A stretch of 56,335 bases of DNA from Bacilli bacterium (lineage in GTDB: Bacteria; Bacillota_I; Bacilli_A; ML615J-28; CAG-698), in NCBI GenBank assembly GCA_050177775.1, contig JBFXGS010000001.1:1-56335 (forward strand), in the 5' to 3' direction. How positions within the stretch are numbered: position 1 is the stretch's first letter; each line of letters begins with the position of its first letter. The translations under genes and the position numbers were made by a program. Of this stretch, positions 32,776 through 39,507 are shown piece after piece. A model generated the notes under the pieces. That model made no database searches, was not told the origin of the DNA, and saw nothing but the letters and a program-made list of their open reading frames with translations.

Positions 32776-32798
32776 AGTGCCATTAAATGGCACTTTTT
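32776..32798 (+). terminator. Intrinsic terminator ending the first operon
   Basis: AGTGCCAT-TAA-ATGGCACT hairpin followed by TTTT. Confidence 0.75.
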
Positions 32799-32802
32799 CA
32801 AT

Positions 32803-32836
32803 TTGTATATACAAGTTATTTTTTAAATGGTATAAT
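32803..32836 (+). promoter_or_regulatory. Promoter of the second operon with a perfect 12-bp palindrome operator candidate
   Basis: TTGTATATACAA (32803-32814) is a perfect palindrome overlapping the -35 region. TATAAT lies at 32831-32836. Confidence 0.6.
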
Positions 32837-32855
32837 TAAAAAAAGGAAGAGAAAT

Positions 32856-35090
32856 ATGAGGAAAATTTTTATGGCTTTTTTGTTAGCAACGCTTTTATCC
32901 GGGGTTAGTATTAATGCCGAAACCACTGCCATTGTTGATGATTTTTTAAACGGGAAGGATGTGGTCCGCTATGAAAACTATTTGGTTTATTATAGTTTCA
33001 ATTCGACTTTAAAATCACCTGCAAACCAATGGGGATATGAAATTGCGGTTAGCAGTAATCACTTTGTGATTGATTGTGACACAAACGCAACCATGGAAAC
33101 AGGAGGATATATCATATCCGGGCATGGGACGAAAAAAACGACGTTGCAAAATGTCAAAGTTGGTGATCAAGTTAGTATCAATTGGGAAACTAAACAAATC
33201 GTGATTACGCGCGATAGTTTGAAAAGCCCGCAATTTTTAGCTCATCGTTTTAAAACAACCTCGGAAAACTATTACAATCAAGCAATCGAGGGCGGATATG
33301 ACTTTAACAGAACGCTTGTTGAACATATGCTTAATTTAAATGATAATGATTTACTGCAGATTGATGCCATCGTTGAAAAAGAAAGTCCCACAAGCAATGA
33401 AATTGATTTGGTTAAGATACTGGCTGATGGCATTGATGCTAGGATGCTATCCATCAAGTTTTTAACTTCTTTCTCTTCAACTACGGAAATTAGAGCTTTA
33501 TGGCATCGACCCAATGCGGCAGGCATTAAAGAGAACAACTTAGAAAATTTAAAGGCGTTTGTGCAAGAAGTAAAGGACCTTGGGTTTAATACCATTTTTG
33601 TGGAGACGCTTTGGAATGGATATGTCAGTTATCGGTCGGATATCATTGCTACGCATCCGCAAGTTGCTAATTTTACCTATGGTGAAGAATATAAAAACGA
33701 TTATATTGCGGCTTTAATTGGTGAAAGTCAAAAATTAGGCATTGATGTTCATGCTTGGTGCCACACCTTTAATGCGGGGAATGCAACCTACAAAGCCACT
33801 TCCATTAAAGATGAATGGTTATTGGAAGATTATCAAGGACTTACTTTACATCCAAATAGTTATGGAGGCAGTTATTATTTAGATCCATCTAATCCGGAGG
33901 TACTGACTTACTTGACAAGCGTTTTTTCGGAAATGGTTGAAAAATACGATTTTGCGGGAATTCAATTAGATTACATACGTTATTATGATAATAATTATTT
34001 ACAAACGCCGATTCGTGATAGTGGTTACGGATTACTCCCGGAAACACAATTTAAAACAGAATATTCATTAACCGGTGATGTTCGAACCCTCATTAAACAA
34101 AACACCTATTTGGAATTATGGAATGAATGGCGCCAAAACAATGTAACCAATGCTGTTCGAACTTTTTCTTCGGCTTTAAGAAGGCTTAATCCGCAGATCA
34201 TCATATCCGCGGATGTTGTTTCGAGTATCAATTATGCGAAAAGTACATATATGCAAGACTGGAAAACATGGGTTGAAAAAGGATACATTGATTTATTATG
34301 CCCAATGATTTATACCGGAAGTGCCGAAACTATTGAAAAAGACTCGTTAGCGATAATGAATCAAATAAAAAACCTTTCGTTTTTAGCTTCAGGGATTGCT
34401 CCAATTTATTATGGGCATTCGTTAGAAATCAATCATGATGAATTCGTCGCAACAAAAAGCGGCGATGGTTTAGCCTTTTTTGCAAGCCAAAACATCGTTG
34501 GATTAAGTGATGTTACTCAATCAATTAAAACAGGGGTTTTTAGAAACACGGCAGTATCTCCGCTTCGAGAAACCAAATTGGTTATCACAGAAGCTTTGTT
34601 GAACTTGAAAAGCTATGTTGAAAAGGCGATGGCGAATGAACCGCAACAATTAATGTTTTTAAACCATGTCGAAGAAATGATGACAATGAAGTGTGATAAC
34701 CCGGCTGATTATCAAGCCCTTATGGAAAAAATGATTTTTGTAAGAACGATAACTCCGTACATCTCTTCTTCTTCAATGCGAGAAATATTCTCACAAGAAT
34801 TAACTCAATTAATTCATATTCTTGATGTGAAAATAAGTCGAGAAATGATTGCTTATGGTTTTTATAACCCTGATGATGAAGAAAGGCCCAATCCGGATCA
34901 ATTTGATTACCCAATCGATAATCCAGAACCCGAACCTGAACCGAAACCCGAGCCGGAACCAGAACCGGAACCCGAGCCTGAACCAGAGCCGGATGAAGAA
35001 AAAGGTTGTTTTAAAGTGTTTTCGTTTCCTTCTGTTTTGCTTCTTGGATTAATTTTTATCTTTATTCGAAAAAAAGAAAGAGGTTATTAA
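32856..35090 (+). CDS. Secreted, C-terminally anchored GHL10 (DUF187/YngK-like) glycoside-hydrolase-like protein
   Basis: Signal peptide MRKIFMAFLLATLLSGVSINA. GHL10-like core RALWHRPNAAGIKENNLENLKAFVQEVKDLGFNTIFVETLWNGYVSY ... GIQLDYIRY. C-terminal PE repeat, KGC, TM helix and RKKERGY tail. Start trimmed to ATG 32856. Confidence 0.75.
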   Translation: MRKIFMAFLLATLLSGVSINAETTAIVDDFLNGKDVVRYENYLVYYSFNSTLKSPANQWGYEIAVSSNHFVIDCDTNATMETGGYIISGHGTKKTTLQNVKVGDQVSINWETKQIVITRDSLKSPQFLAHRFKTTSENYYNQAIEGGYDFNRTLVEHMLNLNDNDLLQIDAIVEKESPTSNEIDLVKILADGIDARMLSIKFLTSFSSTTEIRALWHRPNAAGIKENNLENLKAFVQEVKDLGFNTIFVETLWNGYVSYRSDIIATHPQVANFTYGEEYKNDYIAALIGESQKLGIDVHAWCHTFNAGNATYKATSIKDEWLLEDYQGLTLHPNSYGGSYYLDPSNPEVLTYLTSVFSEMVEKYDFAGIQLDYIRYYDNNYLQTPIRDSGYGLLPETQFKTEYSLTGDVRTLIKQNTYLELWNEWRQNNVTNAVRTFSSALRRLNPQIIISADVVSSINYAKSTYMQDWKTWVEKGYIDLLCPMIYTGSAETIEKDSLAIMNQIKNLSFLASGIAPIYYGHSLEINHDEFVATKSGDGLAFFASQNIVGLSDVTQSIKTGVFRNTAVSPLRETKLVITEALLNLKSYVEKAMANEPQQLMFLNHVEEMMTMKCDNPADYQALMEKMIFVRTITPYISSSSMREIFSQELTQLIHILDVKISREMIAYGFYNPDDEERPNPDQFDYPIDNPEPEPEPKPEPEPEPEPEPEPEPDEEKGCFKVFSFPSVLLLGLIFIFIRKKERGY
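34924..34992 (+). repeat. Imperfect GAACCN hexanucleotide repeat encoding a (Pro-Glu)n linker
   Basis: Encodes PEPEPEPKPEPEPEPEPEPEPEP. A similar tract lies at 39367-39420. Confidence 0.85.
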
Positions 35091-37566: not shown

Positions 37567-39507
37567 ATGAAAAAGTTAACGTTTATTCTTTGCTTTATTT
37601 TTGTTGTTTTGTTCTTTGTTTTTTTTAGAGTTAACACTTTTGCTCACTCGATGAGTGTTGAGAAAAATGACACGATTAAAAGTGGGACAGTTATACCAGG
37701 AATAACTTACGAAAGCTTTTCGGGAATGACAATAAATGATGCCCAAACCACCAGCAATCAAAGAATTAGTTGGGTGAAAAAATCCGCAAGTGCTCATGCG
37801 AAAATAGTTTCCTGGAGTAAACTAAAAGAAAACGGCATTGAAGGCGCGAACCTATTAAATCTGGCAAGTGATTTTGAGAGTAAAAATCCAGGATGGCGAG
37901 TGCTTGCCGGAATTAATGGGGACTATTACGACCCGACGACTAAAACGCCCGTGAATGCCCTTGTACAACAAGGTGATGTTGTAAAAGGAACAAACTTTAC
38001 ATTATCGAGATATTTTTCAATTGGCTTTAACGATGATAGCACTGGCTATGTAACATCGAAAACCAATGTTTTAGAAACAAAGTACGCTTTAACGATTTAT
38101 GATGAATCAAGGACTCGGGTTATTCTGGAAGTGGAACTTCAAGGATTAAACACGTATCCTAACAGCAAACAGACAAGTGTTTATTATAATAGTCAATATC
38201 CTTATCAAATTCCTAATGCCCGTTATTTTCGTGTAAATGATTTAGATTATGCCATCAATTACGGGTCTTATTTATTTAAAGGAAAAGTCAATGAAGAAGT
38301 AAATAATACCGAAACCCATTTAGGACAATTAGTGATCGCATCTTTAGATGAACGTGTTCAATATTTACTTGAAAAAAATCCATATATCCGGGTTCAAAAG
38401 CATTTAAAAGATGTCAATAACGGTTATGACAATATTATTGGAGTCGGAAGTCAACCTCTAAAAGATGGGACAATCTTAGAATTTTCCGAAATAAATGACC
38501 AAAATCTTGATTTCGCAAAACTTCGTGCACCGCGTTCTTCAATTGGCTTTACCCATGACGGCAGTTTTGTGATGGCTACCATGGATGGAAGGCAGTCGTT
38601 AATGGCCGGAGTTGACTTACGAGAAGAAGCCATGGTTATGGCATCTTTGGGGTGCCATCAAGCCTTTAATTTAGATGGTGGGGGATCAACCCAGTTAATT
38701 GTTCGAGAAAATGATCAATTGGTGATGTTAAACTCGCCTTCCGAAATCTATCGGAATAATGCCAATGGGGTTTTAATAGTGGAACCCGATGTTGATATTG
38801 AGGTTGACATTTCCCATTTATCTTTTTCATCGCTTGACTTACAATACTCTTTGGTGCCGCAAACCGGGGTGAATATTATAAGCCATTCTTTATATGCTAA
38901 TAATGTTCCGATAACAACGAGCCCAGAAACGATTACCATTGATTCTTTAATTTATTCGGGAATTAATTATTTGTCTTTGGTTGTGAAATACGAAAAACAA
39001 GGATTTATTTATGAACGATGTTTGTGGGTTGAACGAATAAATCTTGCTAATTATGGACTTGTTGAACCTATTGTTAAGGAAAAGCCCCATGATTTTACGG
39101 TTGTATTTGAAAAAGATGAAACTATCAAGGGCTTTACCGCGGTTATTAATTTTGATGATCCCGATAACACAATCACAAAACTTTATTTAGCATATGAAGG
39201 TAATGAAGAAATCGCCTTAAAAAGAATCAACGGGTATGAAGTCGATTTTTATAATGTTGAAAATAATTCATCTTTTTCTTTTTCGATTATTTATTATTAT
39301 CGAATTAACACGATAAATGCGGTATCGGAAACTTATGAAACTTTGTTTCCTTATGTTTATCAAGCGGAAACAGAGCCCGAGCCTGAACCTGAACCTGAAC
39401 CAAAACCAGAACCGGAAACTAAAGGTTGTTTATCTTGGGAAACACTATTACCTATTTCGCTTTTGATGTTAGGTTTTGGATGGTTTAAGAGGAGGAAACA
39501 TGAATAG
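37567..39507 (+). CDS. Secreted, C-terminally anchored phosphodiester glycosidase (NAGPA/DUF2233 domain) protein
   Basis: Signal peptide. Motifs GINGDYYD and RSSIGFTHDGSFVMATMDGRQ...GVDLREEAMVMASLGCHQAFNLDGGGSTQLIV, typical of the NAGPA domain. Also a C-terminal beta-rich region, PE repeat, KGC, TM helix and KRRKHE tail. Confidence 0.8.
   Translation: MKKLTFILCFIFVVLFFVFFRVNTFAHSMSVEKNDTIKSGTVIPGITYESFSGMTINDAQTTSNQRISWVKKSASAHAKIVSWSKLKENGIEGANLLNLASDFESKNPGWRVLAGINGDYYDPTTKTPVNALVQQGDVVKGTNFTLSRYFSIGFNDDSTGYVTSKTNVLETKYALTIYDESRTRVILEVELQGLNTYPNSKQTSVYYNSQYPYQIPNARYFRVNDLDYAINYGSYLFKGKVNEEVNNTETHLGQLVIASLDERVQYLLEKNPYIRVQKHLKDVNNGYDNIIGVGSQPLKDGTILEFSEINDQNLDFAKLRAPRSSIGFTHDGSFVMATMDGRQSLMAGVDLREEAMVMASLGCHQAFNLDGGGSTQLIVRENDQLVMLNSPSEIYRNNANGVLIVEPDVDIEVDISHLSFSSLDLQYSLVPQTGVNIISHSLYANNVPITTSPETITIDSLIYSGINYLSLVVKYEKQGFIYERCLWVERINLANYGLVEPIVKEKPHDFTVVFEKDETIKGFTAVINFDDPDNTITKLYLAYEGNEEIALKRINGYEVDFYNVENNSSFSFSIIYYYRINTINAVSETYETLFPYVYQAETEPEPEPEPEPKPEPETKGCLSWETLLPISLLMLGFGWFKRRKHE
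39367..39420 (+). repeat. Imperfect GAACCN hexanucleotide repeat encoding a (Pro-Glu)n linker
   Basis: Encodes ETEPEPEPEPEPKPEPET, immediately before AAAGGTTGT (KGC). Confidence 0.85.

Follow-up and report, generated by a model that had tools for sequence, protein, structure and literature searches.

C-terminal sorting signals decide which proteins remain on the bacterial surface. A cysteine-bearing class of these signals was united by Haft (bioRxiv 10.1101/2023.06.07.544157), and all four of its described types are linked to CPBP enzymes. The class has so far been described in Myxococcota, some proteobacteria, Synergistetes and Thermococcales, and an experimental link to an enzyme came only in 2025. 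For the MYXO-CTERM type, MrtX cleaves in a Cys-dependent manner; in the two-step model the Cys is first lipidated and the cut then falls distal to it, and the lipid transferase is an open question for which Lgt or an Lgt-like enzyme is the leading candidate (PMC11980579). Firmicutes and Mollicutes go unmentioned in the papers on Cys-type signals, and our literature searches found no such signal in Bacillota or Mollicutes. Here we describe a family of Cys-bearing C-terminal tails found on two exported enzymes, a GHL10 glycosidase-like protein and a NAGPA phosphodiester glycosidase, that are encoded in a 56,335-nucleotide stretch of DNA (the window; contig JBFXGS010000001.1 of assembly GCA_050177775.1) from a Bacilli bacterium. 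These tails form a genuine, uncatalogued family that is under selection, and the Cys is invariant in all 47 read to date.

The GHL10 gene (PF02638; 32856..35090, forward strand) encodes an N-terminal signal peptide (MRKIFMAFLLATLLSGVSINA) and a protein that ends in ...PEPEPEPKPEPEPEPEPEPEPEPDEEKGCFKVFSFPSVLLLGLIFIFIRKKERGY. This end divides into a (Pro-Glu)n stalk or linker (PEPEPEPKPEPEPEPEPEPEPEPDEE, 34923..35000), the signature Lys-Gly-Cys (35001..35009, with the Cys codon at 35007-35009), a 19-residue hydrophobic helix that is a predicted stop-transfer or transmembrane segment (FKVFSFPSVLLLGLIFIFI, 35010..35066) and a putatively cytoplasmic basic cluster, RKKERGY (35067..35087). The NAGPA gene (PF09992; 37567..39507, also forward) likewise encodes a signal peptide and a C-terminal tail, ...ETEPEPEPEPEPKPEPETKGCLSWETLLPISLLMLGFGWFKRRKHE, made up of a (Pro-Glu)n linker (ETEPEPEPEPEPKPEPET, 39367..39420), Lys-Gly-Cys (39421..39429, Cys codon 39427-39429), a 19-residue hydrophobic helix (LSWETLLPISLLMLGFGWF, 39430..39486) and the basic cluster KRRKHE (39487..39504), all on the same strand. 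Translation gives both C-termini and their tripartite layout exactly as in a preliminary description of the window, which had placed the GHL10 tail at 34924-35087; the peptide quoted there is correct, and its start was one base out of frame (34923 in frame). The longest open reading frame of the GHL10 gene (32787..35090) would put 23 extra residues (32787-32855) ahead of the signal peptide, and the true start is probably the ATG at 32856 (MRKIFMAF...).

A six-frame scan of the whole genome (G000; a draft of 1.39 Mb in 137 contigs, 36% G+C and 84% complete) found five tails beyond the window pair, for a total of seven. Two belong to purple-acid-phosphatase-type metallophosphoesterases on contigs C7 and C8, two to a pullulanase and a PUD-domain protein encoded together on contig C28, and one to a second GHL10 protein with Listeria-Bacteroides repeats on contig C15, where the tail has Ser-Cys, not Gly-Cys. 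Signal peptides are present on all seven proteins, their catalytic domains are unrelated, and in both C28 enzymes the tail Cys is the sole Cys of the entire protein. Given a [GS]-Cys frequency of 0.13% of positions, about 0.3 of the 44 hydrophobic-plus-basic C-termini would be expected by chance to carry [GS]-Cys at a 19-22-residue spacing, as compared with the seven observed (Poisson P about 3e-8). With 40 more such tails in relatives, the similarity is therefore not a coincidence. It had been proposed at the outset that the absence of any other protein with a KGC-helix-basic tail from the genome would reduce the likeness to chance; the tails are in fact present in number, both here and in relatives. 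The second GHL10 protein (C15:242-2866, forward strand; 870 aa, with Flg_new repeats) has an N-terminal lipobox-like LVFTGC in addition to its C-terminal Ser-Cys tail, and could be anchored at both ends.

Scanning with a tail profile, as the preliminary description had suggested, found members in the genome and in its relatives. The seven-tail profile gave strong, full-length matches at the ends of open reading frames in all genomes of the genus, with 5-8 in each at E<=1. Beyond the genus, such matches were scattered over some of the family's other genera and two sister-family genomes. From 14 related genomes, 40 further tails were read. In a survey of the class, the tail domain was found in 17 of 301 evenly sampled genomes, mostly within this order; the tail-positive genomes beyond the order are few, and their tails are mainly on orthologues of the same starch-cassette enzymes. 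This starch cassette (DUF1189 - pullulanase - PUD-domain protein - ABC transporter) lies at C28:5352-11915 in our genome and also at G179:C1 and G303:C146. These genomes represent two families of the class, and in all of them both cassette enzymes have kept the Cys tail.

Beyond the invariant Cys, position -1 is Gly in 44 of the 47 tails and Ser in three, position -2 is Lys or Arg in 32, and small or polar residues fill positions +2 to +4 after the Cys. Throughout, 19-22 residues separate the Cys from the basic cluster, with a mid-helix LLGL consensus, and the linkers vary among tails from (PE)n or (PD)n to PDT repeats or none at all. The signature can thus be written as [K/R]-G-C, a 19-22-residue helix with a small or polar start and, in many cases, a Gly near its middle, then a Lys/Arg cluster. 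Codons were compared in 46 tails, of which 34 have TGT and 12 have TGC for the Cys, and all four Gly codons occur; this synonymous variation implies that the constraint acts on the amino acid. We consider it very probable that the tail is a genuine Cys-dependent signal. The preliminary description had also remarked on shared DNA between the two window tails. An 11-mer, AAAGGTTGTTT, does occur in both genes (at 35001 and 39421), and its two matches versus 0.16 expected were equalled in 4 of 100 shuffles, which is weakly unexpected. As a sign of common origin it was rejected, since it merely reflects K-G-C-F/L codons in an AT-rich genome and the Cys and Gly codons vary across the family. In one same-genus orthologue of the C15-type protein (G001:C13:6114-6188), an in-frame TAA stops the tail before the basic cluster (...RSSCSNLSFANLSFAFLALAWLVI, then stop), which could be a truncation, a pseudogene or an assembly error.

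Both window tails fall below the cut-off of every model among the curated NCBIfam sorting-domain hidden Markov models (release 20), the PEP-CTERM and PEF-CTERM models included. The tail of the C28 PUD-domain protein (EKGCSANSASAMVGFGLLGLVFFFRRRRFA) passes TIGR03901 (25.4 vs 20 bits) and TIGR03382, 'GC_trans_RRR' (23.3 vs 15.85), and is the only one of the seven in the genome above the MYXO-CTERM cut-offs. Across the 44 tails of alignment A2, matches at E<=0.01 number seven for GC_trans_RRR, three for MYXO-CTERM and eight for the LPXTG-anchor model TIGR01167. The TIGR01167 matches (best E 1.9e-7) fall on the helix and basic part only, and no tail has an LPXTG motif. Automatic annotation may mislabel tails that match this model as LPXTG proteins. 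As judged by sequence comparison, the family is closest to the Cys-type signals united by Haft, yet outside their models.

The resemblance to MYXO-CTERM (TIGR03901, TIGR03382, NF040914; myxosortases MrtX, MrtC and MrtP; Myxococcota and Bradymonadales) extends to a Cys beside Gly, a transmembrane helix, a basic cluster and many unrelated Sec-exported cargos, often after a disordered linker. The tails here differ in having K-G-C rather than a GCGC-like motif and a basic cluster of mixed Lys and Arg, and six of the seven in this genome fail the models. Additionally, the type II secretion step to the outer membrane should not apply in a wall-less host with a single membrane, an expectation that comes from the host type and not from a search for the secretion genes. 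Other CPBP-linked Cys-type signals (those of MrtJ and MrtS) share the invariant-Cys architecture and the predicted CPBP processing; they come from Synergistetes, proteobacteria and archaea, and their models match none of the tails. The MrtJ arrangement of a CPBP gene beside its target gene has one parallel in our data, in the related genome G006.

Better-known pathways offer further partial likenesses. In the N-terminal lipoprotein pathway (Lgt, then LspA), the Cys also follows a small residue (Gly or Ser) where a single helix meets the outer membrane boundary, and Lgts are present here, with two paralogues in G000 and an Lgt-CPBP operon in tail-positive relatives. The topology of the tails is inverted, however, with the helix after the Cys, so that cleavage would fall C-terminal to the Cys. 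Of the lipobox [LVI][ASTVI][GAS]C, only the small -1 residue is common to the tails, in which positions -2 and -3 are mostly Lys and Glu. CAAX processing by eukaryotic Rce1 or archaeal MmRce1 has a CPBP enzyme cutting after a lipid-modified Cys near the C-terminus, as we propose here, whereas CAAX substrates have three residues after the Cys, are prenylated and are processed on the cytoplasmic side; the tails have ~26-30 residues after the Cys, including the helix, and their Cys is extracytoplasmic. LPXTG proteins of Bacillota, the substrates of sortase A, share the motif, helix and basic cluster on surface enzymes, and differ in that no LPXTG motif, sortase or peptidoglycan transpeptidase is found here.

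Plain C-terminal anchors are the remaining comparison. The phytoplasma antigenic membrane protein Amp (Acholeplasmatales), with a signal peptide, an exposed domain and a C-terminal helix, is an anchor of this kind. The same layout, without the invariant Gly-Cys at a fixed register, is seen on many GHL10 orthologues, and a few other exported G000 proteins also end in a plain linker, helix and basic cluster without Cys. Among 46 full-length GHL10 homologues, 11 have the Cys tail, 30 have the plain anchor and five have no anchor. That an anchor is kept across these homologues indicates that C-terminal membrane anchoring is the conserved function. In the tree of the cargo enzyme, Cys tails outnumber plain anchors seven to one in the clade of the window protein, plain anchors outnumber Cys tails 19 to one in the sister clade, and well-supported branches require at least 4-5 switches between Cys tail and plain helix. 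Anchor type thus tracks host clades and not the enzyme, which argues that the Gly-Cys form is a host-lineage trait imposed on unrelated proteins. This clade-wise pattern is what a lineage-specific processing system would produce. Together with the invariant Cys, the fixed spacing, the unrelated cargo and the one MYXO-CTERM match, it bears out the initial suggestion of a lineage-specific, MYXO-CTERM-like anchoring or processing signal of the Cys type.

By threonyl-tRNA synthetase, the closest named genomes are 'Tenericutes bacterium ADurb.BinA124' (87% identity), Acholeplasma sp., Candidatus Izemoplasmatales and metagenome-assembled genomes of Anaeroplasmataceae, and no penicillin-binding transpeptidase was found in G000. 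On the strength of these relatives and of this absence from an 84%-complete assembly, the organism is most probably a wall-less, Mollicutes-type member of the Bacilli. The preliminary description saw no sortase gene in the window; this holds, and it extends to the genome as assembled, where sortase (PF04203) and rhomboid (PF01694) are both absent. The exosortase family (PF09721), which would serve PEP-CTERM or PGF-CTERM signals, was found in none of 20 tail-positive genomes, G000 among them. CPBP is therefore the only one of the four known C-terminal sorting-enzyme classes that is present.

G000 encodes two CPBP (Rce1-like) proteases and two Lgt paralogues, so the proposed scan for a co-occurring processing enzyme did return candidates, although it singled out no cognate enzyme in this genome. 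CPBP-1 (C5:911-1684, 258 aa) has intact EExxxR, FxxxH and HxxxN motifs. No CPBP gene in G000 adjoins a tail gene, and a search for related loci starting from CPBP-1 gave no match. CPBP-2 (C121:169-570, forward strand, 134 aa) was dismissed as the cognate protease because it is absent from tail-bearing genomes of the same genus; it is unique to G000 among 41 genomes (G000 and 40 relatives). It shares a 3.3-kb contig with genes for a MalG-like permease and a GH13 enzyme, and either its recent acquisition or mis-binning of the contig may explain its presence. The DUF1189 and RDD-family membrane proteins beside the C28 tail genes were likewise rejected; DUF1189 belongs to the starch cassette and is conserved with it in G179 and G303. 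DUF1189 occurs in Firmicute maltodextrin operons.

The two Lgt paralogues are of different types. Lgt-1 (C12) is of the canonical GRWGNFFN type and Lgt-2 (C43) of a GR.GCF..GCCYG type. The Lgt-1 gene product (C12:2296-3327, reverse strand) has, N-terminal to its Lgt domain, a signal resembling that of lipoproteins (...LFISLFLVGCS...). The Lgt-2 gene (C43:7030-8373) follows rplK-rplA-rplJ-rplL, with a small lipoprotein gene between. On the metagenomic contig L164 (5659-9498), a CPBP-Lgt pair occupies a comparable position after rplL, a likeness to Lgt-2 that is positional only.

Genomic linkage is seen in relatives. G006, which belongs to the same family, has a gene for a 249-aa CPBP flanked immediately on each side by a tail-bearing gene. 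The reciprocal best match of this CPBP is the CPBP of tail-positive G159 (32-33% identity, full length), whose gene overlaps a co-directional Lgt paralogue, and the next-best matches (G130, where the gene is amid tail genes, G023 and G010) are all from tail-positive genomes. The CPBP-Lgt pair recurs in seven of eight metagenomic contexts of the G159-type subfamily, and in all of those at least 47% identical; it has three different flanking contexts and always a short overlap. The CPBP-paired Lgts form their own clade (support 99/96), the sister of which (99/95) comprises the Lgts of three tail-positive family genomes, G006b, G008 and G009. Lgt-2 of G000 lies elsewhere in the Lgt tree, beside the Lgt of tail-negative G014. 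A search for homologues of the G006 CPBP matched no protein other than the query. Two other apparent links were rejected: the Lgt near tail genes in G179 and G303 reflects synteny, with the starch cassette followed by Lgt, and the other 'second CPBPs' (G002, G005, G010 and G023) have no tail-bearing neighbours. One of the tail proteins encoded in G006 (G006:C4:100709-102439, locus L130; 576 aa) has an N-terminal XRE-type helix-turn-helix and no obvious signal peptide, and a neighbouring 314-aa tail open reading frame has no clear start or signal peptide.

The CPBP-tail and CPBP-Lgt linkage in relatives fits the two-step MYXO-CTERM model of Guo, Haft and Wall, and it suggests how the tails might work. 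In this proposal, wall-less Bacilli of the Acholeplasma or Izemoplasma kind would hold Sec-exported hydrolases on the outer face of the membrane, spaced by the Pro-Glu stalk. The N-terminal signal peptide would drive export; the C-terminal helix would then stop transfer with the basic cluster in the cytoplasm, leaving Gly-Cys at the outer membrane boundary. An Lgt-type transferase would add lipid to the Cys thiol, after which a Rce1-like CPBP intramembrane protease, for which CPBP-1 is the sole conserved candidate in G000, would cut just after the Cys, and the enzyme would remain held through its C-terminal lipid. For this uncatalogued family of Cys-bearing tripartite anchoring signals, Cys lipidation followed by CPBP cleavage is the most likely course, and with this mechanism included we regard the proposal as evenly balanced. 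A more specific version would make these proteins 'reverse lipoproteins', with Lgt-type lipidation of a C-terminal Cys and CPBP trimming, the housekeeping Lgt or Lgts and CPBP-1 acting in G000, and the CPBP-Lgt operon marking the MYXO-CTERM-type transferase as an Lgt paralogue. We put this forward tentatively and lean somewhat against it. Since the dedicated genes are missing from G000 and the tails do not track the CPBP and Lgt genes that it does have, we can only infer lipidation, cleavage and the identity of the acting enzymes in this genome.

Several observations weigh against lipidation and CPBP cleavage. Neither the CPBP subfamily linked to tails, which has members in G006, G159, G130, G023 and G010, nor the clade of CPBP-paired Lgts occurs in G000 or its genus. 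CPBP-1 orthologues occur in every genome of the family, tail-negative ones included, and are missing from tail-positive G036, so that co-occurrence of CPBP-1 with the tails was rejected. CPBPs as a group are present in all 48 genomes surveyed, tail-positive and tail-negative alike, and at this universality their co-occurrence with tails is uninformative. Neither CPBP of G000 reaches the myxosortase cut-offs: CPBP-1 scores 30 vs 75 bits with MrtJ and 23.5 vs 130 with MrtS, and the best score with Mrt_core (NF040914), 17.1 vs 100, comes from CPBP-2, CPBP-1 having no match. Lgt-2 was rejected as a tail-specific transferase, because relatives that mostly have no tails carry this type as their ordinary Lgt and because in the tree it groups with tail-negative G014, outside the CPBP-paired clade. 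The G006 arrangement is a single instance, and one of its flanking genes has no obvious signal peptide. Finally, GHL10 orthologues function with a plain helix anchor lacking Cys, and with neither wall nor outer membrane in the way, cleavage is not needed for surface retention.

In the main alternative explanation, the tail is a permanent, uncleaved type-I stop-transfer anchor and Gly-Cys is kept for some other purpose, such as S-lipidation as a second anchor without proteolysis or a thiol-dependent contact at the membrane surface. The plain anchors of many GHL10 orthologues and of a few other exported G000 proteins favor it, as do the capacity of a single-membrane, wall-less cell to display proteins without cleavage and the lack, in this order, of any candidate enzyme that co-varies with the tails. 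A helix anchor, however, has no need of an invariant Cys register. The Cys in 47 of 47 tails, the fixed 19-22 register, Gly or Ser at -1 and Lys or Arg at -2 on unrelated cargo are typical of a site that an enzyme recognizes. The trait also changes from one host clade to another, and in relatives a CPBP adjoins tail genes while a sister CPBP subfamily pairs with Lgt. We consider a permanent anchor unlikely, if still a serious contender.

The tail could also be a true sorting signal served by a hitherto unrecognized enzyme class that is neither CPBP nor Lgt, for instance a transferase that attaches a membrane glycolipid or lipoglycan to the Cys or to a new C-terminus. Within the family, genomes with tails and without them (G014 being one of the latter) share CPBP-1 and both Lgt types, so that something else must decide the use of Cys tails, and G036 has tails without a CPBP-1 homologue. 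Set against this, no candidate of such a class was found, all four described Cys-type signals are tied to CPBP, every tail-positive genome has a CPBP, and the CPBP-tail and CPBP-Lgt linkages occur within the same class of bacteria; we judge this explanation rather improbable. A signal of the sortase, exosortase or rhombosortase kind whose motif has diverged would fit the tripartite layout and the eight of 44 tails that touch the LPXTG-anchor model through their helix and basic parts. The tails have no LPXTG, PEP or Gly-Gly motif, the corresponding enzymes are absent from the genomes in which they were sought, and without a penicillin-binding transpeptidase there is probably no wall to attach to, all of which makes such a signal highly improbable. 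Chance likeness of two low-complexity tails, for which Pro-Glu repeats and the weakly unexpected 11-mer might speak, has a negligible probability, refuted as it already is by seven tails where ~0.3 are expected and by the invariant Cys in 40 more.

If Cys lipidation and CPBP cleavage do occur here, the Cys class of sorting signals would extend to cells without a wall or an outer membrane. Sorting could not then mean passage to an outer membrane, and the purpose of the Cys chemistry could be studied in isolation. The CPBP-Lgt operon of relatives would become a candidate for the lipid transferase left open by Guo, Haft and Wall (PMC11980579), and the 'reverse lipoprotein' version, if true, would be the first pathway of C-terminal lipid anchoring in bacteria with a single membrane. 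Annotation would be corrected for tails that are now unnamed or cross-match LPXTG and MYXO-CTERM models, and a set of surface enzymes (glycan, starch and phosphoester hydrolases) would be defined for an uncultured digester and gut lineage.

One further feature of the window concerns the 3' end of the NAGPA gene. The downstream DUF4127 gene, in its longest open reading frame, begins at a TTG (39476) inside the NAGPA gene. The 32 bases shared by the two (39476-39507) encode the end of the NAGPA helix, the basic cluster and the stop; an in-frame ATG at 39500 would cut this overlap to 8 bases.

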